63,230 nt of DNA, filler included, from a bacterium (GCA_030615855.1; 6 parts of 6 records of this genome joined end to end with filler, not necessarily neighbours in it), one strand, 5' to 3'; numbered from the whole stretch's first letter, positions 5,601-51,604 are shown. The notes: a model not told the origin generated them from the sequence alone. Program-made: numbers and translations.

Positions 5601-8600
5601 GGTTCTGCCTGAACCTCCCCTGCTTCCCCCTAAGCATATCGGATAGAGACTTTAAGGGTCTTCCCCCAGCACCCTTAACCACCCTTCCCCTCCTTCCATT
5701 ATCAAATAAAGCATCCATTGCTTCCTGGAGCATCCTCTTCTCATTCCTCACGATGACCTCTGGGGCGCGAAGCTCCATGAGCTTCTTTAACCTATTATTC
5801 CTATTAATTACCCGGCGATAGAGGTCGTTCAGGTCGCTTGTGGCGAACCTTCCCCCGTCCAAAGGAACTAAGGGTCTTAGGTCAGGCGGGATGACGGGAA
5901 GGACTTCTAGGATCATCCACTCCGGCCTATTCCCAGAGGCCAGGAAGGACTCCACGATCTTCAATCTCTTACTTAGCTTCATCCTCTTCTGGGCAGAGGT
6001 AGTCCTTCTCATGTTATTCTTGATCTCCTTGGCAAGAGCAGCCAAATCCACCTCCTCCAATAGTTTCCTGATGGCCTCTCCCCCTATCCCGGCCTTAAAG
6101 GAGGTACCATACCTCTCTCTATAATCCTGGTACTCTTCCTCAGTCAAGAGCCTCTTCTTGGCCAGCTTGGTCATGCCGGGATCGGTGATGATGTACTCCT
6201 CAAAGTAGAGGACTTTCTCTAACTGTCTCTGGGATAACCCGAGAAGAGCTCCCATTCTACTGGGTATCCCCTTGAAGTACCAGATGTGGGAAAGAGGAGT
6301 AGCCAACTCGATGTGGCCCATCCTAACCCGGCGCACAGAAGACTTGGTAACCTCTACCCCGCAGCGATCACATACTATCCCCTCATGCTTCATCCTTTTA
6401 TACTTTCCACAGTAGCACTCATAGTCCTTGGTGGGACCGAAAATCCTTTCGCAGAATAGACCATCCCTCTCCGATCTGAAGGTACGATAATTTATGGTCT
6501 CTGGCTTCTTGACCTCTCCCTGGCTCCAGAATTGGATGACCTCTGGCGAGGCGATCTTTACTCTTATGGCTTCATACCCACCTGCCCGTCCCTGTCCGTC
6601 CGACAGGCGGGCGGCAGACGGAGGCGAGGTAGGGGTTGCTGGCGTCCTCTTCTTCCTCTCAAGTTCGACATTCAAGGTCAGTCCCATCAACTCCTTGACC
6701 AGGACATTGAAGGACTCGGGAAGGGTAGGGGGAAGGGTGTCTTCTCCCTTGACAATGGCCTCGTATATCTTCGTTCTCCCAACGATGTCATCGCTCTTTA
6801 CGGTGAGCATCTCCTGCAGGGTATAAGCGGCCCCATAGGCCTCCAGGGCCCAGACCTCCATCTCCCCAAACCTCTGTCCTCCAAACTGGGCCTTCCCTCC
6901 CAGGGGTTGCTGGGTAACCAGGGAGTAAGGACCTATTGCCCGGGCATGGATCTTATCCGCCACTAGGTGGGCGAGCTTCATCATATAGATATAGCCCACC
7001 GTGACCTCTTGATCGAAGGGCTCACCCGTCCTCCCATCATATAATATGGTCTTCCCGTTCTCTGGAAGGCCGGCCTTCTTCAAGAGCTTTTTGATCTCCC
7101 CCTCTCTTGCTCCATCGAAGACTGGAGAGATGAACTTCAGCCCCAAGGCTTGAGCAGCCCAGCCCAGGTGGGTCTCCAGTATCTGGCCCACATTCATCCT
7201 TGAGGGAACCCCAAGGGGGTTTAAGAGTATCTCCACTGGGGTGCCATCTGCCAGATAGGGCATATCCTCCTCAGGCAGGATCTTGGCGATCACTCCTTTA
7301 TTCCCATGCCTTCCTGCGATCTTATCTCCCACAGAGAGTTTCCTCTTCTTGGCTACGAAGACCTTGACCATCTTCAAGATCCCTGAGGGGAGTTCATCTC
7401 CCTTCTTGGCCCTCTCCAGGTCCCGGTCTCTTCTTCTCTTGATGGCCTCTATCTTCTCCTTCAGGATCTCTTCTATCCTCTCAATCTCCTCTTTTCTCTT
7501 CAGTCTCTTAGTCTCTCTCTTGACCCTCTCAGAGAGTCTTTTTATCTCTCTCTCCGCCTCTCTCTTTATCCCCTCTAACTCCACAGATTGGGCCTCTCTC
7601 TCCTTCTTAGTCTTGGGCCTCTTCTTCTTAGAGAAGATCTTGACATCGACCACTATCCCCTCATCCCCAGGGGGGAAGCGAAGGGAGGCATCCCTTACTT
7701 CTGCTGCCTTCTCTCCAAATATGGCGCGCAGTAGCTTCTCCTCTGCAGAGAGCTCGGTCTCTCCTTTAGGGGTGACCTTACCGATCAAGATATCCCCTGG
7801 TTTGACAGCGGCCCCGATACGCACGATCCCCTCCTCATCCAGATTGACCAGGGCCTCCTCTGCTACGTTGGGGATGTCTTTAGTAATCTCCTCCTTCCCC
7901 AATTTAGTATCCCGGGCTAAGAGCTCATACTCCTCTATATGGATAGAGGTGAACTTATCATCCTTCACCACCCTTTCACTTATTAGGATAGCATCTTCAA
8001 AGTTATATCCCTCCCAGGGCATGAAGGCCACTAAGACATTTCTTCCCAAAGCGAGTTCCCCCTTGTCTACTGCCGGACCATCAGCAATGATCTCTCCCCT
8101 CTTCACTCTCTGGCCTCTCTTCACGATCGGCCTCTGATGGATGCAGGTATCCTGATTGGACCTGATGAACTTATCCAGGAGATAGGTATCATGGGTCTCG
8201 AGGCTGAAGGAAGGCTCCTCTATTCGGATGATGATCTTATCTGCGTCTACCTCTTCTACTACTCCCTCCCTTTTAGCCAAAACGACCGCCCCGGAGTCCT
8301 GGGCTACCTTCTCCTCTATCCCGGTTCTCACCAAAGGGGGCTCAGGAACCAGGAGGGGAACTGCCTGGCGCTGCATATTGGAACCCATAAGAGCCCGATT
8401 GGCATCATCGTGTTCCAGAAAAGGAACCAAGGCAGCCGAGACAGAGACCAACTGTTTAGGCGAGATGTCCATGTAATCGATCTCGCTTGGGGTAACCTTA
8501 GGGAAGTCACCCCTCCTCCTTGCCGAGACTCTTTCCTCCAAGAAACATCTCTTACTGTCGAGTCGGGCATTGGCCTGAGCGATAGTGTACTCGTCCTCCT

Positions 8601-10440
8601 TATCTGCAGAGAGGTACTCGATCCTCTCAGTCACCCTTCCCTTCTCTACCTTGCGATAGGGAGATTCAATGAGGCCGAACTCATTCACCTTGGCATAGGT
8701 GGAGAGGGAGTTGATGAGGCCGATGTTCGGGCCTTCTGGAGTCTCTACAGGACACATCCTGCCATAGTGAGTATGGTGGACATCCCGCACCTCAAAGCCT
8801 GCTCTCTCCCGAGATAATCCTCCCGGGCCTAAGGCAGAGAGTCTTCTCTTATGGGTGAGCTCTGCTAAGGGATTCGTCTGGTCCATGAACTGGGAAAGCT
8901 GACTCCTGCCAAAGAAATCCCTTATTAAAGCTACCAGGGGATTGGCGTTTATCAGGTTGTGGGGCATGGCGCTCTTTAGATCCATAAAGGACATCCTTTC
9001 CCTTATCCCCCGCTCTACCCGGAGGAGCCCAATCCTCACCTGGTTGCTCAAGAGCTCTCCCACGCTCCTGGCCCTCCTATTCCCCAGGTGATCGATATCA
9101 TCGATGGTTCCCTTTCCATACCTTAAATCAACCAGATATCTGACAGCCCCGATAATATCCTCTCTGGTCAGGGCTCTCTCGCTCATGGGAACATTCAGGC
9201 CCAGCTTCTTATTGAGTTTATACCTTCCCACCTTGGCTAGGTCATATCTTCTCTTATCGAAGAAGAGCCTCTCCAAAAGCCTCTTAGCCCCTTCTGCTGA
9301 GGGTGGTTCACCAGGACGAAGCCTTCTATAGACCTCTATCAAGGCCTCCCTCTGGGTAGTGGTGGAATCCTTCTCCAGGGTATTCCTGATGGCCAGGTTG
9401 GCCCTTACCTCATCAATGACCACGGTCCGCACCTTCTTTATCCCTGCTTTTGCCATTTTACTCAGGGAAGTAGGGGTGACCTCCTGGTTAGCTTCTAAGA
9501 TGACCTCTTTCGTCTTTTCATCTATCGCTTCTCTTGCCAAAATCTGGCCCAGGGCCTTGGGCAACTTGGCTAGGGGGGAAATGACCTCTATCTCCTTTAT
9601 CCCGGCCCCCTGGATCTTCTCCAAGAGAGGTGGGGTAACTTTCTCTCCAGCCGAGAGGATCTTCTCACCCGTCTGCCTATCCCTAACGGTTCTTATGGCC
9701 ACCTTTCCTAAGGCTCGAGAGAACCTGGGCCCTTTGACCTTCAGGATCTTGGGGGGTTCTTCTACCTTGATCTCTCTCGTGGGATAGAAGAAGGATAGTA
9801 TTTCTTCATTCCTCTGGTAGCCCAGGGCGCGCAAGAAGGCAGTGACTAAGAGCTTTCTCTTGCGATCTATCCGGGCATAGACCAGGTCATTGACATCGAG
9901 TTCAAACTCCAGCCAACCTCCTCTGTAGGGAATGATGCGGCAGGAATAGAGGTGTTTGCCATTGGGATGAACAGAAAAAGTATAGGCCACCCCTGGGGAA
10001 CGATGGAGTTGGCTCACTACCGCCCGCTGGGCGCCATTGATGATGAACGTCCCCTGAGGGGTCATGCGGGGTATCTCCCCAAGATAGACCTCCTCCTCCT
10101 TGATCTCCTTTATCTGCTTCTTCCCCGCCTTATCTTCTTCTCTTATCACTAGCCTCAGGATTACCTTAAGGGGCAGGGTATAGGTCAGGCCTCTATCTCG
10201 ACATTCCCTTATATTATACTTCAGCTCCCCCAACCTATAGCCTACAAATTCTAAAAAGCTAAGGCCCTGGGTATCATAAATGGGAAAGATTTCTCTAAAG
10301 ACGGCCTCCAGACCCTGAGGCTTGCGAGAAAGAGGACCCTTGCCTGGCTGCAAGAAATCCTCATAGGATTTCTTCTGGATCTCGATGAGGTTCGGTATTT
10401 CCAAGACCTCTGGGATCTTGGCAAAGCTTACCTTCTTCAT
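2605..10440 (-). CDS. rpoBC: Fused RNA polymerase beta-beta' subunit
   Basis: One 2611-aa ORF with RpoB motifs ([31 protein letters not shown]) then RpoC motifs ([28 protein letters not shown]); no stop or Met at the junction. Confidence 0.95.
6581..6622. repeat. In-frame 42-nt nested palindromic insert at the rpoB/rpoC junction
   Basis: cctgcccgtc[cctgtccgtccgacaggcggg]cggcagacgga, i.e. one 21-mer inside another. Confidence 0.75.
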
Positions 10441-10599
10441 TATAGAATAACCCCCTACCCCGATTTTATCGGGGAAAACTCTGAAATTTTAAACAAGTGA
10501 TCAAATTTCTAATTACTAATCTCCAACAAAATGTCCAATTCTTAAATGTCAAATGTCCAATCCAGATCATTGGAAATTGGAAATTCTCTTTTACAGAAA

Positions 10600-11130
10600 T
10601 TATTTAAGTTCTACCTTGGCTCCCACCTCTTCCAGTTTCTTCTTTACTTCTTCTGCTTCCTCCTTTGGGATCCCGGTCTTCACCGGCTTGGGAGCTCCGT
10701 CTACCAGGGCCTTAGCCTCCTTCAGGCCGAGGTCGGTCAGACTCCTCACCACCTTAATGACCTGTATCTTCTGAGGGCCTATCTCCTTCAAGATGACATC
10801 GAAGGTGGTCTTCTCCTCTGCCGGAGGTGCCCCGGGGGCTGCTCCGGGAACCGCCATGGCCACCGGCACTACAGCACTAACTCCAAACTTCTCCTCCAAT
10901 ACCTTGACAAGATCGGCAAGTTCTAAAACACTCAAGGATTCGATGCCTTTTATAATCTCTTCTGCTTTTTTGGAAAGCTCCACCGCGACCTCAGGTTTAG
11001 GCTCTTTCTCTGCCTTCGGAGCTTCTGGCTTTGTCTCTTTCTCTACTATCTCTTTTGCTTCCTCCTTCTTCTCTTCTTTGGGAGCTTCTTTAATTTCTGG
11101 TTCCTTCTTCCCCTCTTTCTTTTCTACCAT
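10600..11130 (-). CDS. rplL: 50S ribosomal protein L7/L12 with long charged N-terminal extension
   Basis: [19 protein letters not shown]...[10 protein letters not shown]...[22 protein letters not shown] before ATG 11130. Confidence 0.95.
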
Positions 11131-11149
11131 AATCAACTACCTCCTTCTT

Positions 11150-11677
11150 TTATCGCTCAATCCCCTTAAGAATGAGAATTAAATTTCTTATATTTCCTTT
11201 GAGAACATTTATCAGGCCCGGTATGGGTGATTTTATTATAGAAGCGACCTGGGAGAGAAGTCCCTCATAGGAAGGGAGAAGAGCGAGCTCTCTAATCCTT
11301 TCCCTATCGATAAGCCTCCCCTCAACTATCCCCACCTTAATCTTCAGATTCTCATGTTCCTTGCTAAAATCGGTCAATATTCTCACTCCCGCCAGAGGGT
11401 CTTCATAACCAAAGGCAATAGCAGTGGGCCCCCTCAGATAAGGAAGGAGCCCTTCTTCATATCTTTCCCCTTTGACTGCCAGGCGGGCCAAGGTATTCTT
11501 AATCACCTCATACTCAATCCCTTCACTCCTTAACTTCTTTCGCAGATCGCTCATCTCTTCCACATCCAGACCACAATAATCAGAGAGAACGATGCTTGAA
11601 GCAGAATGCATCCTCTCCTTTATCTTCTCGACCTTCTTCTCCTTGGCTATTCTCTGTGGTTTCTTCTCTTCTGCCAT
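11150..11677 (-). CDS. rplJ: 50S ribosomal protein L10
   Basis: DYCGLDV..LRKKLR..VIKNTLA..GPTAIAF; lies between rplA and rplL. Confidence 0.95.
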   Translation of the reverse strand: MAEEKKPQRIAKEKKVEKIKERMHSASSIVLSDYCGLDVEEMSDLRKKLRSEGIEYEVIKNTLARLAVKGERYEEGLLPYLRGPTAIAFGYEDPLAGVRILTDFSKEHENLKIKVGIVEGRLIDRERIRELALLPSYEGLLSQVASIIKSPIPGLINVLKGNIRNLILILKGIER

Positions 11678-12390
11678 TAGAGGCCTTCCTTGGTTAGTCT
11701 TTTGATTAGATCCTGGGTATCTATTCTGATGCTCGGCCCCATGGTGGAAGATAAAGTGGCCTTCTTCAGGTACTGACCTTTGGCGGTGGCCGGTCGGGAC
11801 TTAACCACCGCCCTGAGAAGGGTGAGGAGATTCTCCGAAAGGTCTTCTTCCTTGAAAGACTTCTTACCGATGGAGAGATGCAAAATACTCTGGCTATCCA
11901 TCCTATACTCTATCCTGCCCGCCTTGGCCTCTTTCACCGCCTGAGCTATCTTTAGAGTGACGGTGCCCAATTTGGGATTGGGCATAAGACCTTTGGGTCC
12001 CAGAATCCTTCCCAGCCGAGCAATCTCCTTCATCATATCTGGAGTAGCGATGGCCACATCGAAATCAAGCCAGCCCTTATTGATTTTCTCTATCAATTCT
12101 GTGGTTCCCACGAAGTCCGCCCCTTCCCCCTTTGCTTCCTTCTCCTTCTCTCCCTTAGCAAAGACCAGGACCTTTATCTTCTTTCCTCGACCATAAGGAA
12201 GGACTACCGTCCCCCGAACCATCTGAGAGGAATCCTTGGGGTCCACCCCTAATCTGATATCAATATCGATCGATTCATCGAACTTAGCGGGGGCAACTTT
12301 CTTGATTAGGGTGAACGCTTCCTCTAGAGGATAAGTCTTCCCCTTCTCTATTTTTCCTAAGGTTTCTTTATATTTCTTCCCCCTCTTCAC
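11677..12390 (-). CDS. rplA: 50S ribosomal protein L1 (GTG start)
   Basis: KFDESIDIDIRLGVDP...VRGTVVLP...LGPKGLMPNPK...SSTMGP. Confidence 0.97.
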   Translation of the reverse strand: MKRGKKYKETLGKIEKGKTYPLEEAFTLIKKVAPAKFDESIDIDIRLGVDPKDSSQMVRGTVVLPYGRGKKIKVLVFAKGEKEKEAKGEGADFVGTTELIEKINKGWLDFDVAIATPDMMKEIARLGRILGPKGLMPNPKLGTVTLKIAQAVKEAKAGRIEYRMDSQSILHLSIGKKSFKEEDLSENLLTLLRAVVKSRPATAKGQYLKKATLSSTMGPSIRIDTQDLIKRLTKEGL

Positions 12391-12506: not shown

Positions 12507-12530
12507 CCTACCTCGCTCCGCCCTTCTTTT

Positions 12531-12989
12531 CTATTCTTCTTCTTTCCTACTTTCCTGAATGATTTCGGTTACTACCTCAATGCCCATGGACCTGGCTGTT
12601 CCCTCCACAATCCTTACTGCCCGCTCCAAGTCTGGAGCATTCAGGTCGGGCATCTTTATTTTAGCGATCTCTCTTACCTGGGCCTTGGTTACCTTAGCGA
12701 TCTTCTCCTTGCCTGGGGTACCACTTGCCTTGGCCAATCCCGCGGCCTTCTTTAGTAAGATGCTCGCGGGTGGGGTCTTGGTGATGAAGGTGAAGGAGCG
12801 GTCCTTGTAGACCGTGATCACTACTGGGATGATCATCCCCTCCTCCTTCTTGGTTCGCTCATTGAAGGCCTTACAGAACTCCATGATATTCACCCCATGC
12901 TGGCCAAGAGCCGGGCCCACGGGAGGGGCAGGATTAGCTGCCCCGGCCGGGATCTGGAGTTTTATCTTGGCAGCTATCTCTTTGGCCAT
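12531..12989 (-). CDS. rplK: 50S ribosomal protein L11
   Basis: [34 protein letters not shown]...GTARSMG. Confidence 0.98.
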
Positions 12990-16821: not shown

Positions 16822-16926
16822 ATGAACCCTGCACTTTCTGGTTTGTCTTTACAAGGAATAATTTTCAGAGAATGCAAAATTAGCAAATCAGAAAGGTGCG
16901 GGGGTGGGAAGGAAGGTGCGGGGTGA
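16822..16926 (+). mobile_element. ATGA-targeted inverted-repeat element carrying a 34-codon upstream ORF
   Basis: ATGA-accctgcactttctg...cagaaaggtgcgggg...aaggtgcgggg-TGA; removing the element restores ATGAAGAAAATC. Confidence 0.75.
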
Positions 16927-17396
16927 AGAAAATCTTGATCATTTATTATTCAAAGACAAGAAATACGGAAGAGATGGCAAAGTTTGTGGGAGAGGGAGTG
17001 AAAGAGGAAAAAGTTGAGGTAGAAGTGAAGAAGGCGGAGGATACCAAAGCAGAGGAACTCCTGAAGGCGGATGGAATAATCATCGGTTCCCCCACCTACT
17101 ATGGGGGCATGGCTGCCCCCATTAAGGAACTTCTCGATGAGAGCGTAAAATTCCATGGGCAACTAAAAGGGAAGATAGGAGGGGCTTTTTCCTCTTCTGC
17201 CAATATCGGAGGAGGAAATGAAACGACCATTATGGATATTCTGAAGGCCTTTCTCATCCACGGCATGATTATTCAGGGAACCCCGGAAGGAGACCATTAT
17301 GGCCCGGTAGCTATCGGTGCTCCAGATGAAAGGAGCAAGAGCCAGTGTAAAGGTTTAGGCCGTAGGATAGCCAGACTGGTAAAGAGATTAGGATGA
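16923..17396 (+). CDS. Flavodoxin/WrbA-like NAD(P)H oxidoreductase (GTG start)
   Basis: IYYSKTRNT, IIGSPTYYG, GKIGGAFSS...GGNETT. Confidence 0.85.
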   Translation: MKKILIIYYSKTRNTEEMAKFVGEGVKEEKVEVEVKKAEDTKAEELLKADGIIIGSPTYYGGMAAPIKELLDESVKFHGQLKGKIGGAFSSSANIGGGNETTIMDILKAFLIHGMIIQGTPEGDHYGPVAIGAPDERSKSQCKGLGRRIARLVKRLG

Positions 17397-17424
17397 GCCC
17401 TGCACTTTTAAGCAAGGGTAAGAA

Positions 17425-17688
17425 ATGAATATTAAAAGGTGGGCGATAAAAATTTTCTATAAAGAGAGTGAGAGGGTTATCCATGTTGTGAAAGAGAATT
17501 ATGGGATGACCTATCTCGTTATTAAAGGGGAGATTGATATCAATAAATCCTTTCCCTTTGAGGCCAATGAGGAAGGGAAATGCATCGGATTCGATGTTCC
17601 AGAAGACCTAGACCTAAAGGAGTTCGATGAAGAATTGAAGAGATTTGCTAAGGAGCAAGGGCTCTTGGTCATTGGAGAGAGAAAGTGA
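17425..17688 (+). CDS. Hypothetical protein
   Basis: 87-aa ORF overlapping the next start (GTGA). Confidence 0.6.
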   Translation: MNIKRWAIKIFYKESERVIHVVKENYGMTYLVIKGEIDINKSFPFEANEEGKCIGFDVPEDLDLKEFDEELKRFAKEQGLLVIGERK

Positions 17689-18906: not shown

Positions 18907-19006
18907 ACACGGATAGACACAGATAACAACACGGATAGACACAGATTTATCCGTGATTATCCGTGTATTTAACCCCAAACAGTAAGCAAAACAAAAAAAT
19001 CCGTGT
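18907..19006 (+). repeat. ACACGGAT/ACACAGAT...ATCCGTG element (short allele)
   Basis: First ~59 nt recur at 19389-19447; relatives near 20220, 20874, 23480, 27510 and 40605. Confidence 0.9.
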
Positions 19007-19022
19007 ATAAGGAAGGATGGAG

Positions 19023-19386: not shown

Positions 19387-19388
19387 CA

Positions 19389-19606
19389 ACACGGATAGAC
19401 ACAGATAACAACACGGATAGACACAGATTTATCCGTGATTATCCGTGGTATTTTATGAGCAAAGTGAATAAAACAAGGTTCTGCGAAGCAGGTTCTTATT
19501 TAACCCCAAACAGTAAGCAAAATAAAAAAATCCGTGTCCAAAGTTTATCCGTGCTAATCCGCGTCAAATAAGCATTCGCAGTAAGCAAAATAAAAAAATC
19601 CGTGTC
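19389..19606 (+). repeat. ACACGGAT element (expanded allele) directly after tRNA-Ala
   Basis: Copy of the 18907 element plus an internal insert (~19448-19496) and a duplicated right end. Confidence 0.85.
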
Positions 19607-19620
19607 TAAGGAGGAGAGAG

Positions 19621-36123: not shown

Positions 36124-37272
36124 ATGAAGATTAGTTGTTTTCAGGGAGATTTGATAAGGGGAATTCAGACCGTAGGAAGTGCTGTGGCGGCAAGAGCCAC
36201 TCTTCCCATCCTAACCAATATTCTATTGGAGGCAAAAAAGGAGAAGATAGAATTATCGGCCACTGACTTAGAGATTGGGATCAAGTGTAGCGTCCCGGCC
36301 CAGGTCAAGAAGGAGGGTGCCATTACCATCTCGGCCAAGAGGTTCTCTGATATCGTAAGGGAGTTGCCTGAAGGGCCAGTAGAGATGGAGACAGAGGATA
36401 GCCAGATGAAGATATCCTCTTCTGGAATATTCTTCAAAGTCCTGGGTCTTCCCGCAGAGGAGTTTCCCACCTTACCAAAGGTGGAGAGCGAAAATCGGTT
36501 CTCTTTGGACTCTCAGCTTTTAAGAGGGATGGTCCAGAAGACTATCTTCGCCAATTCCCGGGATGAAACAAGGTATATCCTGAACGGTAGTTACTTAGAG
36601 ATGGAGAAGGATAGGATAATCATGACCGCCACTGATGGTCACCGGTTGGCAACCATAAGCCACAGAATAGAGAAGGGGCCAAAGAAGAAGATAGGAGCCA
36701 TCATTCCCACAAAGGCATTGAATGAATTGAATAGACTATTGGAGGAGCCAAAGAAGGTTGAGGCCACAATTGGTGAGAATCAGATCTCCTTCTCTTTAGA
36801 CCTGCCCGCCGAAGCCCCTGCCTCGTCGGCAGACAGGTCGGCGCAGGCAGGTGGAATTATACTGAGTTCCAAACTCATCGAGGGTCAATTCCCGGACTAT
36901 AAGCAACTCATTCCAAAGAAGAGCGCCAAGAGACTTTCCATAAATAGGGAGAAGTTATTGAAAGGGGTGAGGAGGGCAGCCTTACTTGCCGATGCCCGAA
37001 CCGGAGCCGTGGAATTACTAGCCTATTCCAATAAACTCATCATAAGGTCCCAGACCCCCCAGGTGGGTGAGGCCCGGGAGGAGATGGACATCGATTATTC
37101 TGGAGAGGAGATCAGGACGGCATATAATGCCCGATATATTCTGGATATTTTACGAAATATATCCTCAGAAGAGGTCACCTTAGAATTGAATGAACCTTTG
37201 AGTCCAGGAGTAATCAGACCAGTAAGTGAAGAGGATTATCTCTGCGTCATCATGCCCATGAGAATCACTTAA
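36124..37272 (+). CDS. dnaN: DNA polymerase III beta clamp
   Basis: LSATDLE, DETRYILNG, ATDGHRL, LIEGQFPDY, IMPMR. Confidence 0.97.
   Translation: MKISCFQGDLIRGIQTVGSAVAARATLPILTNILLEAKKEKIELSATDLEIGIKCSVPAQVKKEGAITISAKRFSDIVRELPEGPVEMETEDSQMKISSSGIFFKVLGLPAEEFPTLPKVESENRFSLDSQLLRGMVQKTIFANSRDETRYILNGSYLEMEKDRIIMTATDGHRLATISHRIEKGPKKKIGAIIPTKALNELNRLLEEPKKVEATIGENQISFSLDLPAEAPASSADRSAQAGGIILSSKLIEGQFPDYKQLIPKKSAKRLSINREKLLKGVRRAALLADARTGAVELLAYSNKLIIRSQTPQVGEAREEMDIDYSGEEIRTAYNARYILDILRNISSEEVTLELNEPLSPGVIRPVSEEDYLCVIMPMRIT
36801..36851. repeat. In-frame 51-nt nested palindrome in dnaN
   Basis: cctgcccgccgaagcc[cctgcctcgtcggcagacagg]tcggcgcaggcagg; outer 30-mer resembles 46169-46198. Confidence 0.9.
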
Positions 37273-37386
37273 CAGTGAACAAGTAACAATGAACAATGAA
37301 CAAGTAACAGTGAACAATGAACAATTTAATTGCTACTTACTACTTATTCCTTACTACTTATTACTTCCGAGTGAAGCGAGGACTGG

Positions 37387-38073: not shown

Positions 38074-40563
<2,490 letters not shown>

Positions 40564-40699
40564 GCGCAGATTAACGCAGATCAAAACGCAGATGATCGCA
40601 GATAACAACACGGATAGACACGGATATCAGACATCAGAAGTTAGATAGTTCTATTGTCTTATGGTCGTATGGTCTAAATAAAGAAAAGGAGGATAGAAA

Positions 40700-41275
40700 A
40701 TGAAGCGATGTCTCATTAGTTTACTAGCGGTTAGTATTGCAGTAGTTTTTCTTACGGGCGAAACAGTGAGGAGCAAGACTAAAGATGAATTAGGTATAGT
40801 CATTGATAGAATAGTGAAAGTACTAAAGTATGGTAGCATGAGTGAAAAACCAGATGCTGCTATAGCATTAGGAATGATTGGTGATCCGAGGGCCATAGAG
40901 CCTTTATTCGAATATTTGAAATATAGTAAGAACGATCACCTACGAACTGAGATAGTGAAGGCGTTGGGAAGGATTGGCGATAAAAAAGCGACTCCAGCAT
41001 TAATTGAGGCCCTTTTAAATGATAGTTATCGCCATACGCGTTGTGAGGCAGCAAGAGCTTTAGGAGAGATAGGCGATAAAAGAGCTATCCCTGCCTTAGA
41101 AAAGGCTTTAAAAGACGAGTATTATCATACTCGTTGGCGAGCTGCAAAAGCTTTGAAGAAACTTACGGGTAAGGATTATACCTATGAAGGATCCAAAGAA
41201 ACTCCTTTAAAAGAAGTTGAAGAGATGATGAAAGAGATCAAAGAAATGGAGAAAGCACTTCCAAAACAGAAGTAG
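40700..41275 (+). CDS. Exported HEAT/PBS-lyase repeat protein
   Basis: Repeats ALG.IGD.RA.P.L..AL; N-terminal signal; AT-rich. Confidence 0.88.
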   Translation: MKRCLISLLAVSIAVVFLTGETVRSKTKDELGIVIDRIVKVLKYGSMSEKPDAAIALGMIGDPRAIEPLFEYLKYSKNDHLRTEIVKALGRIGDKKATPALIEALLNDSYRHTRCEAARALGEIGDKRAIPALEKALKDEYYHTRWRAAKALKKLTGKDYTYEGSKETPLKEVEEMMKEIKEMEKALPKQK

Positions 41276-44832: not shown

Positions 44833-44852
44833 CTTTCGCTCCTTTCAGTCGC

Positions 44853-44922
44853 AGTAACCAGTAACCAGTTTACAGTTTCTCTCTTCTGCTGGTTACTGTT
44901 CGCTGGTTACTGTAAACCTCTA
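44853..44922. repeat. Empty allele of the AGTAACC periodic inverted element
   Basis: Arms identical to 2342-2367 and 2569-2602 with a 10-nt loop. Confidence 0.9.
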
Positions 44923-44938
44923 ATCTTGGATCACTGTT

Positions 44939-45601
44939 TTAGAACTCTTTTCTTCCCTCTAAGGACTTGGCCAGGGTTTCTTCATCCACATACTCTATAC
45001 TCCCACCTACGGGAATCCCATGGGCAATTCTGGTTACTTTAATCCCTGAGGGCTTAATCATTTTTGCTAAGTACATGGCGGTCATCTCCCCATTGGTATT
45101 GGGATTTGTGGCCAGAATGACCTCAGATACCTTCCGGGCCAGAGGCCCTTCCCGCCGGGGCAGAGCCCCTCTTGGGGCGGAGCCCAGGCCGGAGGCCTTC
45201 TCCTTCTTCAGTCTTTCCACTAATTCCTTTATCTTCAGTTCATCCGGACCTATTCCCTCCAAAGGAGAGAGAGCACCCAAGAGTACATGATAAATCCCAT
45301 TAAAGCCTCTTGACTTCTCAAAGGCTAAGACATCCTTCGGCTCCTCAACGACACAGATTATAGAGTGGTCCCTCTGATTATTGCTACAGATCTCACAGGG
45401 ATCCTCTTCTGTGATGTTGTTACATATTGAGCAGTAGGTGATCCTCTCCTTCAGATCTAAGATAGCCTGGGATAAGGCCTTGGCCTCCTCCTTTGAGGAC
45501 CTCAGGATATAGAAGGCGATCCTCTGGGCTGTCTTCGGCCCTATAGAAGGCATCTTGCTAAGTTCCTCAATTAATCTATTCAATGTCTTTGTATGGTACA
45601 T
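44939..45601 (-). CDS. recR: Recombination mediator RecR
   Basis: PSIGPKTAQR, CSICNN..EDPCEIC, YHVLLG, EVILATNP..NGE, TRIAHGIPVG. Confidence 0.97.
   Translation of the reverse strand: MYHTKTLNRLIEELSKMPSIGPKTAQRIAFYILRSSKEEAKALSQAILDLKERITYCSICNNITEEDPCEICSNNQRDHSIICVVEEPKDVLAFEKSRGFNGIYHVLLGALSPLEGIGPDELKIKELVERLKKEKASGLGSAPRGALPRREGPLARKVSEVILATNPNTNGEMTAMYLAKMIKPSGIKVTRIAHGIPVGGSIEYVDEETLAKSLEGRKEF
45130..45195. repeat. In-frame 66-nt nested insert in recR
   Basis: ccttccgggccagaggccctt[33 nt]ccaggccggagg; outer 33-mer identical to 46112-46144. Confidence 0.92.
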
Positions 45602-45662
45602 TATAGCACCTTCGGTGCAGTTATGCGTTATGAGTTATGCGTTATGAGTTTAAAATTCACAA

Positions 45663-47378
45663 TTACTTCTTATTTTCCCCTGGAGGGATTACTTTTCCGG
45701 TTGGTGGTTTGATCTCTAAGATCTCTCCGCCGAAGATATCTAAGGCCTCTTTTACTACTGGCTCCTCCTCTATGAACTCCTCCTTGCTCATCACCATTCC
45801 CTTCTGGGCCACTGCTTCTGGTCTTTCTCTTGGAGTATTTGTCAGGCGACATTCAATGGTAAAGTCCTTACCAAAGATTCTATTCAGTGCCTTCTGGATG
45901 AGTTCCCTATTCTCCTTCTCCTCAATCTGCTCCTTGTGGAACTTAAAGTCTTCATTAAAGCCGATGGTCAGAAGGTTATCCTTCAAGGCGATGGGCTCTC
46001 CTTCCATTAAAAAGGCGCCAGTTACGGCGCTATCCTTCTTTATCTCTCTTATCACCTCACCCCAGGCATCCTTTATCCCCCCCAACTCAAGATAGGAGGC
46101 CTCATCCTTCACCTTCCGGGCCAGAGGCCCTTCCAGGCCGGAGGCCTTTTCAGCCGGAGCCCCTTCTTCCTGCCCACCGAAGCCTCGGCGTAGGTGGGTG
46201 GGTGCCTCCTCTATGGGGAACTCCTCCTGAGCAGGCATTATCCCTAACCTCTCTTCTATTGACTCTATCTTCCTTAATATCTCCTCCACTGAAATAGTGG
46301 GTTCTAATCTGGTTAGTTTTACGACCGCCATCTCTAAGATTAATCTCACCTTTTCGCTCCTCTTCATCTCCTCCCGCGCCTGAGATACAATCTCAATCAT
46401 TCGCAGGAGTCTATCCTGGTCAAACCTCTCTCTGAATTCTTTCAACCTCTCCCTCAAATCCTTGGGAAGGTCGACCACCTCCTCATTGATCTTAAGCATC
46501 AATAGATTTCTGAAATGCTCTAATAAATCAGTGGCAAAGTGGCGTAGATCATACCCTTGATCTATGATCTGATTTATGATATTTAGTATTCCCTTGGTAT
46601 TGTTTTCACCAATTGCTTTTGTTAACTCAAAGAAGGTTCCCTGGGGGACTATGCCCAAAATGGCCTGAAGGTCGCCCTGGGTAACCTTCTTTCCTCCTAA
46701 AGAGATGAGCTGATCCAGGACGCTTATCCCATCCCTCATGCTTCCTTCACTCGCCCGGGCGATCTGGAAGGTGATATCCTCGCTTATCTCCAACTTTTCA
46801 TCCTTGGCAATCTCAGCCAATTTCTTAGCGATATCCTTACTCTTTATCCTTCTGAAATCGAATCGTTGACAGCGGGATAGGATGGTCAAGGGAAGTTTAA
46901 AAGGTGCGGTGGTAGCCAAGATGAATATCACATGGGGAGGGGGCTCCTCCAAGGTTTTTAATAGGGCATTGAAGGCCTCGGTGGTGAGCATATGGACCTC
47001 ATCGATGATGTAGACCTTATACTTCGAACTCGCGGGAGCGAACTTCACCTTCTCCCTCAAATCCCTCACCTCATCTATTCCTCTATTAGAGGCCCCGTCG
47101 ATCTCTAAGACGTCGAGGCTACTCCCAATGGCGATCTCCTTGCAGTTGGTGCACTTGTTGCAGGGGACGGGAGTGGGTCCCTTCTCACAGTTCAAGGCTT
47201 TAGCCAATAACCTTGCGGTAGTCGTCTTTCCTATTCCCCTTGGCCCGGTGAAGAGATAGGCATGGGAGACCCGATTCTGCTTTATGGCTCCTGCTAAGGT
47301 CTTAGTGATATGCTCCTGACCCACTACCTCCTCAAAGGTCTTGGGCCTCCACTTCCTGGCTAAGACGATATAGACCAT
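45663..47378 (-). CDS. dnaX: DNA polymerase III gamma/tau
   Basis: LARKWRP, GPRGIGKTT, IDEVHML, TILSRCQRF, GSMRD. Confidence 0.97.
   Translation of the reverse strand: MVYIVLARKWRPKTFEEVVGQEHITKTLAGAIKQNRVSHAYLFTGPRGIGKTTTARLLAKALNCEKGPTPVPCNKCTNCKEIAIGSSLDVLEIDGASNRGIDEVRDLREKVKFAPASSKYKVYIIDEVHMLTTEAFNALLKTLEEPPPHVIFILATTAPFKLPLTILSRCQRFDFRRIKSKDIAKKLAEIAKDEKLEISEDITFQIARASEGSMRDGISVLDQLISLGGKKVTQGDLQAILGIVPQGTFFELTKAIGENNTKGILNIINQIIDQGYDLRHFATDLLEHFRNLLMLKINEEVVDLPKDLRERLKEFRERFDQDRLLRMIEIVSQAREEMKRSEKVRLILEMAVVKLTRLEPTISVEEILRKIESIEERLGIMPAQEEFPIEEAPTHLRRGFGGQEEGAPAEKASGLEGPLARKVKDEASYLELGGIKDAWGEVIREIKKDSAVTGAFLMEGEPIALKDNLLTIGFNEDFKFHKEQIEEKENRELIQKALNRIFGKDFTIECRLTNTPRERPEAVAQKGMVMSKEEFIEEEPVVKEALDIFGGEILEIKPPTGKVIPPGENKK
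46112..46198. repeat. Two in-frame palindromic inserts in dnaX (33 nt at 46112-46144, 30 nt at 46169-46198)
   Basis: Encode ASGLEGPLARK and THLRRGFGGQ; they are the empty forms of the recR and dnaN inserts. Confidence 0.9.
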
Positions 47379-47495
47379 CTGCTCACTCCGTTCGCAATGA
47401 TATCAGTGATAAATTATAGATTACAGTGATTGGTGATTTATTCGCGCGTATTCGCGTTTTTTATTTTTGCTCCGTGCCATTCGCGATAATTCGCG

Positions 47496-47755
47496 TCACT
47501 GTCCCTTGAGTTCCTCTAATCGTTGGAAAACCCGGGGCAGCAACTCCATCGCTACTCGAGATTCATCCATCTTATTCTCATAATCAACGTACTCATCTTG
47601 GGTTATCCCATACTTCTTAAGAACTTTCTCAAATTCCCTAGCTGATGCTGCACCGGCCTCAATACCCATTTCGCCTGCTTCCACCTTGGCCGCATACTTT
47701 TCCATTATAAGACTCTCTTGTGCTTTCAACTCTACCCAGAGGTCATCATTCATCC
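47496..47755 (-). CDS. Hypothetical protein (3' part)
   Basis: Open to the contig edge; acidic helical sequence. Confidence 0.55.
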
Positions 47756-47855
47756 NNNNNNNNNNNNNNNNNNNNNNNNNNNNNNNNNNNNNNNNNNNNT
47801 TAATTAATTAANNNNNNNNNNNNNNNNNNNNNNNNNNNNNNNNNNNNNNNNNNNN

Positions 47856-48552
47856 TCATTTTGGTCGGACCATTCAGGTCAGGAGCAAAGGGGAGAGGAG
47901 CTTGGTTACTGATATCGATCTAAAGGCAGAAGAGAAGATTGTAGACCTGATTAAGAAGAACTATCCGGAAGATAATATCCTGTCCGAAGAGACCGGGTAT
48001 CAAACCTTTGATTCCGATTTTAAATGGATTATTGACCCCCTGGATGGAACCCATAACTATATCAGGGGTATGGAAAACTTTGGAACCTCCATTGCTTTGG
48101 CATATAAGAATCAGGTCATTTTAGGGGTCATCTATCTACCCATGAGTGATGAGTTATATTTTGCTGAAAAAGGCAAAGGAGCCTTTCTTAATCAGAGAAA
48201 GATCAATGTTTCCCGAAGAGTTTTAGACCAGACCACCATGATCTATGATAGCACCATCAGGCTCAATAAAGGGCCGATGTTAAAGTATCTTGATAAACTG
48301 GTGGATGAGGTCTTCAATATCAGGATGTTTGGTTCTACAGTGCGCGGCCTTACCTATGTAGCGGAAGCCAAAGCAGACTTAGAGGTAGAATATAACGATA
48401 AACCGTGGGATTTTGCCGCTGGCCTCCTTTTGGTAGAAGAGGCGGGAGGTAAGGCAACTGATTTAAAGGGCAAGAAATGGACATTGCATAGCAAAGGATA
48501 TATCGCCTCCAACGGAAGAATCCATTCTCAGGTTTTGAGAATAATAAAGTAA
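47856..48552 (+). CDS. Inositol monophosphatase family protein (5' truncated)
   Basis: LVTDID..AE, ILSEE, WIIDPLDGT.N, PWDFAAG. Confidence 0.92.
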
Positions 48553-48567
48553 TATTTATGATTATTG

Positions 48568-48597
48568 CAGGAGCCTTGAAAGGCTCCTGCTTTTTTG
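48568..48597 (+). terminator. Rho-independent terminator
   Basis: gcaggagcctt-ga-aaggctcctgc followed by a T run. Confidence 0.85.
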
Positions 48598-49044
48598 TTT
48601 TAGAGCAGAGTAGAGGAAAAAATAATTGTCATTCTATCCCAAGTATGCTAAAATTTTAAGTGGAAACTAAGGTAAACAGAAGTTTAAAATAACGGCGCGC
48701 TTTGCTCTCCGCCGTCTTTTACTTATTGAAGTTCTGATACTTTAAAATACCCAGAGACCTATAACTAATCTTACTTCAAGGATAACTATCTGCCCATTCG
48801 CGCGAATGGGCGAATGACAAAAGATGCTTCAGAGGACTAAGTAATAGGAAGGGAGTATATAAAAAAGATCACATTCCGTTAGATAGACTTCGCCATCTAA
48901 CGGAACAGAAAATCCCTTATAGTTTGTGAGAAAATTCACAAACTTGCCCCAAAATTATTTGCTTAAATTGCCGAAAGTAAAGATAGGCTAATTCGCACGA
49001 ATTAGCACATGATAAGTTGGGAGATAAATGGGAATTAGCAGAAG

Positions 49045-49908
49045 ATGAATCACTTTGTTTGCTCAAAGTATAATAGAATTCTTAGTGGGGTCTATATACT
49101 TTTTATTCGAGTTTCCCAGAAAAAGAGAATTGTGGTAGGAAGCTTGGGTAAAATTGCCTTTAGAAAAGGAACTTATCTCTATATTGGAAGATCGAAGACT
49201 AATCTTGCGGCAAGAATAGCAAGGCATTATAGAAAGAAGAAGAGATTATTCTGGCATATAGACTATCTTCTCTCCCAGAAAGAAGCAGAGATAAAGGAAG
49301 TATGGATTGGTAGTGGCCTGACAGAGTGCAAATTGGCTCAGAAAATCTCTTTACTTCCTTCATCCTATTTGGTCAAAAAAGGTTTTGGCTCCTCCGATTG
49401 TAAATGCCCAGGACATCTCTTCTGTACCAATAGGAAAAGTGAAGTCAGAACCTTATTGAAAGAAATGAACTTTGAGAAGTATGTTATGGGTGAAGTAATT
49501 GGGGTATGTTTGAGCAAAGAGAAGGAGAAACCCAAGAATAATGTGGAAAGGGGTTATTTGAAAAAGGGCTTTGGCCTGGTGGGCGATGCTCATTTTGGAA
49601 CAGAGAGGGAGGTAAGCCTCTTAGCCATAGAAGATGTAAAAAGGAAGGAACTTCCTTTTCTTTTCCGACCGGGGAACTTTGCCGAAAACATTACTACCCA
49701 GGGAATAGATATATTATCTCTACCCTTGAGGACAAGATTGAAAGTAGGAAAAACAATATTAGAAGTGAGTCAGATTGGCAAGGGAAAAGGGCCCCATGCC
49801 TATTCCTATCGAGGCTATTCTCTTCTTCCTAAGTATGGGGTTTTCTGCAAAGTAGTAAAGAGCGACTGGATAAAGATCGGAGATAGGATAGAGGTGATTA
49901 GAAAGTGA
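49045..49908 (+). CDS. GIY-YIG (DUF123-like) nuclease domain fused to a MOSC domain
   Basis: GVYIL..YLYIG..RH..WHIDYLL..GFGSSDCKC.GHL, then FGLVGDAH..REVSLL..GNFAENITT.G..LEVSQIGK. Confidence 0.8.
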   Translation: MNHFVCSKYNRILSGVYILFIRVSQKKRIVVGSLGKIAFRKGTYLYIGRSKTNLAARIARHYRKKKRLFWHIDYLLSQKEAEIKEVWIGSGLTECKLAQKISLLPSSYLVKKGFGSSDCKCPGHLFCTNRKSEVRTLLKEMNFEKYVMGEVIGVCLSKEKEKPKNNVERGYLKKGFGLVGDAHFGTEREVSLLAIEDVKRKELPFLFRPGNFAENITTQGIDILSLPLRTRLKVGKTILEVSQIGKGKGPHAYSYRGYSLLPKYGVFCKVVKSDWIKIGDRIEVIRK

Positions 49909-50786
49909 TTGGAAGAAGGCATCCCGACTGGCTCAAAGTAAAGATCCCCTCTGGAAAAGAATATCACAGAATAAAATCTCTCTTGGCATCTTCCCGACTC
50001 TATACTATCTGTGAGGAAGCAAGTTGCCCCAATATCGCAGAGTGTTTTAGTAAAGGAATGGCTACCTTTCTAATTTTAGGAGATGTCTGCACCAGGAACT
50101 GCACCTACTGCAATGTCAAGACCTGTCTGCGTGCGGGCACGCACAGACAGGAGGGAACTCCTTTAGAAATAGATCTAAGTGAGCCAGAACGGGTAGCCAG
50201 AATAGTTAAGAAATTAAACCTCAATTATGTGGTCATTACCTCTGTTACCAGAGACGATTTAATTGATGGTGGGGCGGATATCTTTGCCCAGACAATTCAG
50301 GCGGTAAAAAATCTATCTCCAAGAACAAGAATAGAAGTTCTTATCTCTGACTTCCAAGGAAATCGAGATTCACTTAAACGGGTGATTGATGCCAAGCCCT
50401 ATGTCTTGGCCCATAATTTGGAGACAGTGGAAAGACTGTTTCTTACTATAAGACCCCAAGGGAATTATAGAAGGTCACTAAATCTCTTAAAAAAGGTTAG
50501 AGAAATAAGCCCAGATATTTTTACAAAATCGGGAATTATGGTCGGAATGGGGGAGATAAAGGAAGAGATTGCAGAAGCTATGAAGGATTTGAGAAAAGTA
50601 GGCTGCGATATCTTCACCATTGGCCAATATCTCCAACCTTCTCTAAACCATCTTCCTATCAGTAAATACTACACCCCAGAGGAATTTAGAAAATTTAAAG
50701 AGATAGGGAAAGAGTTAGGCTTCTTACATGTTGAGTCTGGCCCCTTGGTCCGCAGTTCCTATCACGCAGCGGAGGCTATTCTTTAA
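49905..50786 (+). CDS. lipA: Lipoyl synthase
   Basis: CEEASCPNIAEC, CTRNCTYC, TSVTRDDL, GQYLQP, PLVRSSYHA. Confidence 0.97.
   Translation: MIGRRHPDWLKVKIPSGKEYHRIKSLLASSRLYTICEEASCPNIAECFSKGMATFLILGDVCTRNCTYCNVKTCLRAGTHRQEGTPLEIDLSEPERVARIVKKLNLNYVVITSVTRDDLIDGGADIFAQTIQAVKNLSPRTRIEVLISDFQGNRDSLKRVIDAKPYVLAHNLETVERLFLTIRPQGNYRRSLNLLKKVREISPDIFTKSGIMVGMGEIKEEIAEAMKDLRKVGCDIFTIGQYLQPSLNHLPISKYYTPEEFRKFKEIGKELGFLHVESGPLVRSSYHAAEAIL
50122..50151. repeat. In-frame 30-nt palindrome in lipA
   Basis: cctgtctgcgtgcgggcacgcacagacagg; removal restores CNVKKGTP. Confidence 0.85.
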
Positions 50787-51604
50787 TGGATTGGCGTTTT
50801 ATTCAAGATAGTTATTACGGTGCCTATACCAATATGGCTATAGACGAGGCTCTACTTCAAAGTGAAGTACCAGTAGTGAGATTTTATAGATGGAGACCAC
50901 CTGCCATCTCCGTTGGTTACTTCCAGAAATTAGAAGAAGAGATAGATTTAGCAGAATGTAAGAGACGGGGAATAGACTATGTGAGACGCATTACTGGCGG
51001 GAAGGCGGTCTTGCATGATAGGGAATTGACCTATTCTTTTGTCATCTCTCAAGAATTGATGCCCAAGAGCATCACAGAATCCTATAAAGCCATTAGTCAA
51101 GCAATCTTAACTGCCTTAAGAAACTTGGGTCTCAAGGTCGAAATGAACCCCGCACCTTTAAGCAAGGGCAGAGTAAACATCAAAAGGTGCGGGGTGAAAG
51201 AGAAGATCTCTCAGGCCCAAAAATCCTCCCTCTGTTTTGATACCCCTTCTTATTATGAAATTATAGTCAACGGTAAAAAGATTGTTGGCTCTGCCCAGGT
51301 GAGGAAGAATGGTAAAATCTTGCAACACGGAAGCATTCTCATTGATATAGATATAGAGAAGATGTGTTCTCTCTTTAAGGGAGGCGGCAAAATCTCTCAA
51401 GTGCAGGAAAAAGTTACCTCATTGAATAATGAGTTGGAAAAGGAAATAGAGTTTAAAGACCTCGCCCCCGCACTTAAAAAAGGCTTTGAAGAAAACTTCA
51501 ATATCAAGTTAATCCCTGATGAATTGACAAGAAAAGAAAGTGTCCTTGCTCAAGAGATAGCGGCCACAAAGTTCAGCACAAGAAAATGGAACTATCTTCG
51601 ATAA
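50786..51604 (+). CDS. Lipoate-protein ligase / octanoyltransferase (LplA/LipM family)
   Basis: NMAIDEALL, RRITGGKAVLH, KKIVGSAQ, LQHGSI. Confidence 0.92.
   Translation: MDWRFIQDSYYGAYTNMAIDEALLQSEVPVVRFYRWRPPAISVGYFQKLEEEIDLAECKRRGIDYVRRITGGKAVLHDRELTYSFVISQELMPKSITESYKAISQAILTALRNLGLKVEMNPAPLSKGRVNIKRCGVKEKISQAQKSSLCFDTPSYYEIIVNGKKIVGSAQVRKNGKILQHGSILIDIDIEKMCSLFKGGGKISQVQEKVTSLNNELEKEIEFKDLAPALKKGFEENFNIKLIPDELTRKESVLAQEIAATKFSTRKWNYLR
51147..51197 (+). mobile_element. ATGA-targeted inverted-repeat element, in frame (51 nt)
   Basis: ATGA-accccgcaccttt...aaaggtgcgggg-TGA; 13-bp perfect inverted ends; removal gives VEMKEK. Confidence 0.85.

Follow-up and report, generated by a model that had tools for sequence, protein, structure and literature searches.

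Short GC-rich hairpins lying in frame in core genes of an uncultured sediment bacterium: very probable mobile elements with small GIY-YIG nucleases as candidate partners

A stretch of 63,230 bases from an uncultured sediment bacterium, made of six draft-genome contigs joined by N runs around TTAATTAATTAA and hereafter called the window, carries nine short GC-rich palindromic blocks in core genes such as dnaN, gyrB, recR, dnaX, lipA and the fused rpoB-rpoC gene. All nine, which a preliminary description of this DNA had proposed to be tiny elements inserted in frame, are present at the sites named there, inside long open reading frames (ORFs) and in frame. The comparison with sister genomes reported here makes it very probable that the blocks are mobile inserted elements. 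As an explanation of the whole set of observations, we lean towards tiny non-autonomous mobile hairpins moved in trans by GIY-YIG nucleases; that these nucleases are the mobiliser is, taken by itself, finely balanced and slightly on the doubtful side.

The window is 84% coding, as estimated from hand-picked gene intervals, part of which were confirmed by Pfam. It belongs to the lineage UBP18, of which five genomes (G001–G005), all metagenome-assembled genomes (MAGs) of 0.8–1.3 Mb, were compared. A dnaN protein scan provided four close relatives, namely L001/G001 (95% identity), L002/G002 (92%), L003/G003 (91%) and L004/G004 (85%). GC-rich blocks were picked from a GC profile in 30-nt windows, and each block was translated. 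Scans for perfect or one-mismatch palindromes recover just one of the nine sites, because the units are imperfect or nested. A generic stem-loop scan proved too unspecific, as did a census of GC islands at a minimum free energy of -8 or below, whose 395 islands were excluded from all counts. An Rfam scan of the window returned two tRNAs and nothing else.

The nine blocks have a GC content of 0.73–0.83 against a background of 40–52% GC. Seven of them are exact in-frame indels when compared with sisters or orthologs: dnaN (51 nt), gyrB (33 and 36 nt), recR (66 nt), dnaX (33 and 30 nt) and lipA (30 nt). For the blocks in rpoBC and in the lipoate-protein ligase gene, instead, the match with an indel is only partial. 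The common ends of the form CCTG[C/T]C...GG, already pointed out in the preliminary description, were found in rpoBC, in both the outer and the inner unit of dnaN, at the gyrB N-terminus, in dnaX and in lipA.

The clearest case is dnaN. Its 51-nt insert (36801..36851, + strand) is an exact indel and consists of a 30-nt unit of what we call family A, the loop of which hosts a nested 21-nt hairpin of the form CCTGCC..CAGG (36817..36837, + strand); excision of the latter leaves the 30-nt family-A form. The insert is present in the window and in L001 and is missing from L002–L004, in which the empty allele reads FSLDGII, the very sequence that excision had been expected to restore. The junction is unambiguous (TTTAGA/CCTGCC...GGCAGG/TGG, with slashes marking the borders) and shows no duplicated target. 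No residue occupies the insert site in 49 of 54 orthologs, and in three distant orthologs it holds 1–6 residues; the confinement of the 17-residue insert to the window and its closest relative provides evidence on the polarity of the event.

The gyrB gene carries two inserts. Specifically, a 33-nt hairpin of the CCTGCC type follows codon 3–4 (38091..38123, + strand; because of a 2-nt ambiguity the boundary may also be placed at 38089-38121) and occurs in the window only, being absent from L001, L002 and L004. Farther downstream, a 36-nt twin hairpin, CCGCC-AAAA-GGCGG / CCCGCC-AGA-GGCGGG (40080..40115, + strand), is an indel with respect to L004; the window, L001 and L002 all carry it, and the pairing of the L002 copy has decayed.

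On the opposite strand, the 66-nt insert of recR (45130..45195, - strand) is missing from G001 and G004, and the best PDB alignment of the protein is broken exactly there. Comparison with the dnaX copy resolves it into a 33-nt unit of family B, with an outer boundary ambiguous by 5 nt, interrupted by a 33-nt unit of another family, C (45153..45185, - strand, core GGGGCAGAGCCCCTCTTGGGGC). In the linker of dnaX, four independent events fall within 140 nt. The first is a 33-nt family-B unit (46112..46144, - strand; the boundary is ambiguous by 5 nt, 46117-46149 being the alternative, and the GC block spans 46112-46149), which is found in the window only and is lacking in G001, G003 and G004. The second is a 30-nt family-A unit (46169..46198, + strand, the gene being on the - strand) shared by the window and G003 and lacking in G001 and G004; gap placement gives it 27–32 nt, the family model fixes 30 nt, and it scores 48.8 bits with the covariance model R1. 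The remaining two are another 30-nt insert, common to G001 and G003, and a 33-nt insert found in G004 only.

In lipA, the 30-nt hairpin CCTGTC...GACAGG (50122..50151, + strand) lies four codons past the radical-SAM CX3CX2C motif and adds exactly 10 residues, which are absent from the M. tuberculosis LipA, from PDB homologs and from G004, where the protein reads CNIK/KGTP. For the lipoate-protein ligase, the restored string VEMKEK, predicted earlier, was not reproduced. At the three junctions that could be defined exactly (dnaN, the 36-nt insert of gyrB and the G001 dnaX unit) no target-site duplication was observed.

The two partial cases deserve a separate description. The rpoB and rpoC genes are fused in a single frame of 2611 codons (2605-10440, - strand), as they are in G001 and G003, and a block of nested CCTG...CAGG hairpins with CCTGTCCGTCCGACAGG as inner unit (6581..6622, + strand, the gene being on the - strand) maps to the linker between the two moieties. 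The G001 linker is different and 11 residues shorter, and that of G003 contains the same block plus an 18-nt hairpin, so that the 42-nt boundary is not fixed. The hairpins of rpoBC sit in a part of the fusion that is itself variable. The lipoate-protein ligase gene carries a 51-nt element of family D (51146..51196, + strand), with 13-bp arms ACCCCGCACCTTT/AAAGGTGCGGGGT and a 23-nt loop; in G004, the left arm and the loop of the palindrome are kept and 12 other residues are missing.

To place these sites in a wider frame, a census of indels was carried out on the fetchable syntenic contigs of G001–G004 against the window, considering lengths of 15–150 nt and a flank identity of at least 0.65. 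It yielded 50 distinct indels, 22 within gene intervals and 28 intergenic. With GC-rich defined as a GC content of at least 0.63, 12 of the 22 genic indels are GC-rich, each with a length divisible by three. The 28 intergenic indels include no GC-rich one and correspond to AT-richer arrays of 7–11-mers, a separate phenomenon. Four dnaX events dropped by the flank filter were added separately, bringing the GC-rich in-frame events to 16. The host genes, named by Pfam, are rpoBC (two events), rplL, a CBS-domain gene, an anti-sigma gene, dnaN, dciA, gyrB (two), gyrA, recR, dnaX (four) and lipA. All 16 events have a length divisible by three, keep the frame and contain no stop codon. Each shows its own distribution among the window and G001–G004, which indicates that insertion has been recent and repeated. 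In conclusion, many sites have been hit recently and independently in this small (~1 Mb), gene-dense lineage.

Empty alleles with the same junctions were also recovered from public metagenome contigs. Two contigs of X3 and two of X5 lack the 51 nt of dnaN; at the gyrB N-terminus, contigs of X2, X3 and X5 are shorter by a net 33 nt; and the 36-nt insert of gyrB is skipped in contigs of X5. Since these alleles show the same junctions, an assembly artefact of a single MAG is excluded. In run X1, the contigs terminate at hairpins.

The blocks are copies of repeat families and not local accidents, as it appears from searches on about 584 kb of G001 plus the window and on the syntenic contigs of G001–G004. 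Each unit is a single or twin GC-rich hairpin with a length of 21, 30, 33 or 36 nt. The recR and dnaX copies share a 38-nt string, and rpoBC of G001 holds a relative of family C. In the G001 material plus the window, the family B/C cluster comprises seven copies, all of them coding; the twin-hairpin family represented by the gyrB 36-mer also has seven, six of which are coding; an intergenic hairpin family has 11 copies, nine of them intergenic. The latter, of the type GACGGCG-GAGAGCGAAGC-GCGCCGTC, is represented in the window at 48693..48714, with no strand assigned, and inserted copies occur in G002 and G003. The arm of family D occurs 12 times in 438 kb; two tandem copies lie at 16892..16925 (+ strand), upstream of the ORF at 16896, and a degenerate intergenic copy at 17396..17448 (+ strand) is lacking in G004.

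In addition, units of several families insert into one another. The dnaN insert is a composite of 30 + 21 nt and that of recR of 33 + 33 nt, and the dnaN insert scores 33.6 bits with R1, a model built from other copies, with an alignment that spans the nested piece. The gyrB N-terminal and lipA units have CCTG..CAGG ends, yet neither matches the family-A covariance model. The earlier suggestion of 21–33-nt mobile units from more than one family agrees well with these composites and with the fact that unrelated loci, sister genomes and another phylum all hold copies.

Family A is the best defined of these families. Its 30 nt begin with CCTGCC and four variable bases; GAAGC, four further bases and GCG.A follow, and the unit closes with the complement of the variable bases and GG. 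The corresponding pattern has seven matches in the lineage, distributed over two of the five genomes, and is found in 40 of 401 sampled genomes of Patescibacteria, with up to 18 copies each; a reversed control pattern gave no match in the 401. No copy was present in five arbitrarily taken Patescibacteria genomes. Family A is common to two phyla, the UBP18 lineage and Patescibacteria, and this is new. In G001 and G003, the contigs carry all seven pattern matches on their reverse strand, though contig orientation should be arbitrary.

The structure of family A was analysed on 57 distinct copies. The stem is variable; CCTGCC, GAAGC, GCG, A and the G after it never change. In the stem, 94.5% of cells are paired versus 79.2% after shuffling, none of 500 shuffles reaching the observed value; changes on both sides of a pair occur in 63 cells versus 20 in the shuffles, and sliding the partner by 1–3 columns lowers pairing to 25–48%. 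The combination of a conserved loop, a conserved 5' CCTGCC and a covarying stem points to selection on a folded single strand. The 24 G-T pairs against 11 A-C pairs in the stem offer a weak hint that the CCTGCC strand may be the one that folds. Directly 5' of the unit, 46 of the 57 copies have a G. For three sites an empty allele is known, and there this base (A, A, T) belongs to the host; the 5' G therefore looks like a target preference.

Regarding the reading frame, it had been suggested that selection keeps only frame-preserving copies. The 16 coding events, all multiples of three, agree with this idea, although divisibility by three is not independent evidence, because it follows from the open frames. 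In a crude test on the first loci examined, family-A units lie in spanning open frames of at least 100 codons at 12 of 18 distinct places, with both orientations and several frames represented. The unit measures 30 nt also where no frame spans the site. Since family A keeps this length at intergenic sites too, its frame-neutral length is a property of the unit and not just the outcome of a filter on insertions, so that the earlier suggestion is supported only in part.

The inserts are located at N-termini (gyrB, gyrA, the CBS-domain gene and the anti-sigma gene), in linkers (rpoB-rpoC, dnaX and, by position, rplL) or in turns, and they are probably translated as peptides, as their open frames suggest. 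An AlphaFold2 model of the sliding clamp, built for the window dnaN with a 54-sequence alignment, has a mean predicted local distance difference test score (pLDDT) of 91.1. This score drops below 50 nowhere but at residues 230-241, within the insert (residues 227-243), which lies between the strands 220-226 and 244-250. The model supports the view that the dnaN insert would form a disordered surface loop at the turn of a beta-hairpin.

A search for a nuclease or transposase, which the preliminary description had recommended, gave a divided result. On the one hand, Y1_Tnp (PF01797; HUH/RAYT) was found in none of the five lineage genomes, which are incomplete MAGs. On the other hand, GIY-YIG nucleases are present and linked to the hairpins. 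Small GIY-YIG frames of 96–121 aa, likely encoding proteins of about 85–96 aa, adjoin tRNA genes in G001 (one), G002 (one) and G003 (three), and each of them is preceded by hairpins. For these frames Pfam gives PF01541 only, NCBIfam assigns nothing that passes its cut-offs, and the nearest PDB structures are UPF0213 proteins. Immediately upstream of the G001 gene lies a hairpin laid out in the same way as a cluster of coding inserts that start with CCTGCC, namely stem, GG, an inner GCGA-type hairpin, CTTT, and stem.

Further links come from the distribution of the hairpins. In five genomes of Patescibacteria (candidate phyla radiation, CPR), the 49.9 kb surrounding small GIY-YIG genes contain six R1 matches that score 25 bits or more, and 330 kb taken arbitrarily elsewhere in these genomes contain two; one R1 match of that strength lies about 375 nt upstream of the G002 GIY-YIG gene. 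Family-A-like hairpins are accordingly about 20-fold denser beside small GIY-YIG genes, with the proviso that Infernal filters are laxer in small searches. Five family-A-rich genomes have 25 small GIY-YIG frames, and five family-A-free genomes have seven. In addition, at locus L186 a GIY-YIG gene is bracketed by the ends CCCCGTTAGAAAT/ATTTCTAACGGGG (CCCCGTTAGAAATC and GATTTCTAACGGGG), and the same ends bracket both an in-frame insert of 75 nt that G003 carries in its anti-sigma gene and gene-less units of 65–130 nt in G001 and G003.

Some observations on tRNA genes stand beside these data. The region upstream of the G001 GIY-YIG gene has no significant short-BLAST copies elsewhere except a 15-nt word by the tRNA-Ala of the window. 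This word lies in the region downstream of that tRNA (19387-19520), which reads GAGCAAAGTGAAT...AACAAGGTTCTGCGAAGCAGG and is similar to CCTG-hairpin/AACCTTGTTTCTCGC units lying between genes in L001 and G001:C34; the region may be a relic of a tRNA-linked cassette. At L119 (G003:C31) and L185 (G233:C59), small GIY-YIG genes are located between a hairpin-disrupted 5' tRNA copy and an intact tRNA, and in the L185 pseudo-copy hairpin DNA of the CCTGCC-GGCAGG type lies inside the tRNA sequence.

The mechanism that we consider would start from the folded single strand as the nuclease substrate. Single-domain GIY-YIG nucleases of about 85 aa, encoded by tiny cassettes that are tRNA-linked or bounded by terminal inverted repeats (TIRs), would act in trans, as Ssn nucleases do on SRM hairpins (see below), and units would be released or copied as single-stranded DNA (ssDNA) and sealed into the genome at single-stranded stages. 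Units with lengths divisible by three and without stop codons in most frames could survive in loops, linkers and N-termini, where translation would turn them into short, flexible stretches with much Pro, Ala, Gly and Arg; once inserted, the hairpin would decay neutrally, as in the L002 copy of gyrB. In its most far-reaching form, the proposal would make these 21–36-nt hairpins the smallest known mobile DNA units of bacteria, moved in trans by a GIY-YIG ssDNA nuclease of about 85 aa in a kind of transposition undescribed for this fold. Hairpin ssDNA might be cut out and then sealed into nicks or gaps of the replication fork, and the missing target duplication would thereby be accounted for. Lengths tuned to multiples of three family by family would allow the units to colonise coding DNA in gene-dense, reduced genomes, to cross phyla and to remodel loops of essential proteins continuously. 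We put this full version forward as speculative and rather unlikely to hold in every part.

A number of observations weigh against a GIY-YIG-driven mobility of the hairpins. No transposition event, excision product or enzyme activity has been observed, and we know of no strand-transfer or DNA-joining chemistry for GIY-YIG nucleases. The window itself contains no GIY-YIG ORF in a profile search at E <= 10 whose positive control worked, in line with the previous remark that no mobiliser is visible in it, and all the lineage genomes are incomplete MAGs. The flanks of the single G001 GIY-YIG gene have no R1 match, and the gyrB N-terminal and lipA units, as well as families B and C, are unlinked to any nuclease gene. 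The strict family-A pattern is found at none of 18 CPR GIY-YIG loci (a loop-only pattern at two), so that the enrichment rests on looser covariance-model matches. The comparison of GIY-YIG frame numbers between five family-A-rich and five family-A-free genomes was made on a small, hand-picked sample. As for the hairpins, copy numbers are low, with four strict family-A matches in G001, three in G003 and none in G002, G004 and G005; fold energies relative to mononucleotide shuffles give z values from -0.5 to -5.8, some units being unremarkable; and the excess of G-T over A-C pairs is only modest.

Other explanations were weighed on the same data. The hairpins might arise locally and de novo, by template switching or quasi-palindrome correction in the course of replication, with a bias of mutation or repair in favour of GC-rich ones and without any mobility. 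Such an origin would fit the absence of target-site duplications, the many units that are unique in the 0.8 Mb examined, their diverse sequences and their low copy numbers. However, near-identical units with 38 nt in common occur in unrelated genes (recR and dnaX), the outer unit of dnaN has counterparts both elsewhere and in another phylum, the inserted sequence does not repeat its flanks in inverted form, and the loop and 5' motif are conserved in 57 copies. A de novo origin is contradicted for families A, B, C and D and for the twin hairpin, the lipA and gyrB N-terminal units being singletons, and we regard it as very improbable. A mobile nature of the units with a different mover is a more substantial alternative, which we nevertheless judge unlikely: an unseen transposase (HUH/RAYT or other), a phage or plasmid enzyme, or recombination after DNA uptake would do the work, and GIY-YIG genes would merely share hairpin-rich neighbourhoods. 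Most copies have no nuclease gene nearby, the cross-phylum identity argues for horizontal transfer, and in incomplete MAGs a missing transposase is weak evidence. Against this stand the failure to find Y1_Tnp in any of the five lineage genomes, the roughly 20-fold density of A-like hairpins beside small GIY-YIG genes within the same genomes, and the inverted ends common to a GIY-YIG gene and gene-less inserts.

The inserts could also be kept for the use of the host, as mRNA structures setting the pace of translation or stabilising the transcript, as nuclease or methylase recognition sites or as useful surface loops. The stem covariation does reveal selection on the fold, and many of the genes hit (dnaN, dnaX, gyrA/B, recR, DciA) serve replication. 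On the contrary, presence and absence vary among sister species at every site, the L002 copy of gyrB has lost its pairing, the family-A unit is read in different frames and orientations, and the sites are the loops, linkers and N-termini that mere tolerance predicts; a host function is in our opinion highly improbable. Finally, the proteins might remain unchanged if the inserts were removed before or during translation, as an RNA-level intervening sequence or by ribosomal bypass. Strong mRNA hairpins serve known bypass or hop systems, but removal would not need 16 of 16 coding events to be in frame and free of stops, and the junctions show no conserved take-off or landing codons, which leaves this idea hardly credible.

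The mobile hairpins proposed here can be compared with known systems, on the basis of the available parts of the sources cited. Ssn proteins are 94-aa single-domain GIY-YIG enzymes that cut ssDNA beside hairpin repeats of about 30 nt flanking their genes (Chenal et al. 2025, PMC11893778), in a repeat-gene-repeat layout which its authors liken to an insertion sequence. Our units resemble the SRM repeats of that system in being GC-rich hairpins of about 30 nt with oriented, non-palindromic flanks and many dispersed copies (PMC11893778), in their enrichment beside a single-domain GIY-YIG gene of about 90 aa, and in the occurrence of repeat-gene-repeat layouts. They differ in that families A–D share no block with the NTS motif as printed in PMC11893778; in that SRM are described around genes, the term "in-frame" not occurring in the accessible text of that paper, whereas here units lie in frame inside essential genes; and in copy numbers, which are in the tens here versus hundreds there. 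Moreover, copies here are nested and polymorphic between sister species. As regards CDD family cd10448, to which an Ssn nuclease would be expected to belong, the candidates gave PF01541 and, as nearest solved relatives, UPF0213 proteins.

Rickettsia palindromic elements (RPE) are palindromic repeats of about 105–150 nt found in frame in Rickettsia housekeeping genes (Ogata et al. 2000 via PMC10969869, PMC3184786). Both systems involve in-frame palindromic repeats of several families in unrelated housekeeping genes of a small genome, with peptides compatible with the fold. RPE are set apart by their length, the units here measuring 21–36 nt, and by their confinement to Rickettsia, whereas family A crosses phyla; the consulted parts of these sources describe no nuclease partner for them. 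Repetitive extragenic palindromes (REP/REPIN) and their RAYT transposases offer another parallel, being GC-rich, non-autonomous hairpins of 21–65 nt whose movement is attributed to a single-copy enzyme that recognises ssDNA hairpins and works in trans, and which, as here, lack a target-site duplication (PMC3116915, PMC3184786). According to the same sources REPs are extragenic, whereas all 12 GC-rich indels of our census are genic. They are further distinguished by their enzyme, since no Y1 transposase was found in the five lineage genomes and the candidate enzyme has another fold.

The small dispersed repeats (SDR) of the cyanobacterial Nostocaceae, reportedly described by Elhai and colleagues in 2008, are said to be hairpin-forming mobile repeats of 21–27 nt, nested and located inside conserved sequences; no mobiliser is said to have been proposed for them, and a dense in-frame occupation of core replication genes is reportedly not their main feature. 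They differ from our units in sequence and in host phylum. In yeast mitochondrial DNA, the GC clusters (GC42; Wu and Hao 2015, PMC4478555) are likewise mobile GC-rich hairpins, of about 40 nt, in AT-richer genomes, with substitutions concentrated in loops and units that merge and shuffle, and intron-encoded endonucleases have been proposed as their helpers. They are mitochondrial and mostly intergenic and have a putative AG target duplication, whereas the units described here are bacterial, mostly coding and without duplication at the exact junctions. With respect to classical MITEs (miniature transposable elements with inverted repeats), the units ending in CCCCGTTAGAAAT do have inverted ends and a gene-bearing relative, L186; the 30–36-nt hairpins show no duplication at three exact junctions. 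In the literature searched, we found no description of hairpin elements below 40 nt lying in frame in bacterial core genes. What is new here is the existence of 21–36-nt units of intrinsically 3n length, their nesting, the dense and polymorphic way in which they occupy core genes of replication and transcription, the link to a GIY-YIG mini-element through shared ends, and a cross-phylum family with covariation.

Outside the insert families, other features of the window may be mentioned. The intergenic gaps consist mostly of AT-richer arrays of tandem or mirrored words of 7–11 bases (CAGTAAC, GCAGAT.., CACGGATAGACACAGAT..), at 1871-1918, 18908-19008, 19387-19620, 37269-37386, 40565-40640 and 44843-44937; these arrays are wholly different between sister genomes, and many short exact copies of them occur genome-wide. 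GC-rich blocks of about 64 nt lie in rplL (10807-10870) and in a neighbouring ribosomal-protein gene (12891-12954); the rplL block, present in G001 too, may be an older, fixed insert. Perfect GC-rich hairpins of 11–12 bp right after ORF ends (48567-48590 and 56343-56368) resemble ordinary intrinsic terminators. Between gyrB and the ORF that follows, L001 and L002 have an additional small gene of about 480 nt, which is missing from L004 and from the window (40566-40700). Finally, two ORFs on the - strand of the last contig (58698-59330 and 62714-63229) have identical 11-mer runs in common, in the same orientation (58760-58840 and 63080-63160), and are probably paralogous genes.

If the mobility of these hairpins through small nucleases is confirmed, selfish DNA as short as one 30-nt hairpin could spread across phyla, and Ssn-type nucleases would gain a possible role as mobilisers. 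The inserts break assemblies at hairpins and inflate the apparent divergence of proteins, and they could serve as very fine strain markers in metagenomes. For bacteria with small genomes, the same process would represent a steady source of peptide insertions in the sliding clamp, gyrase, the clamp loader, the RNA polymerase linker and lipoyl synthase.

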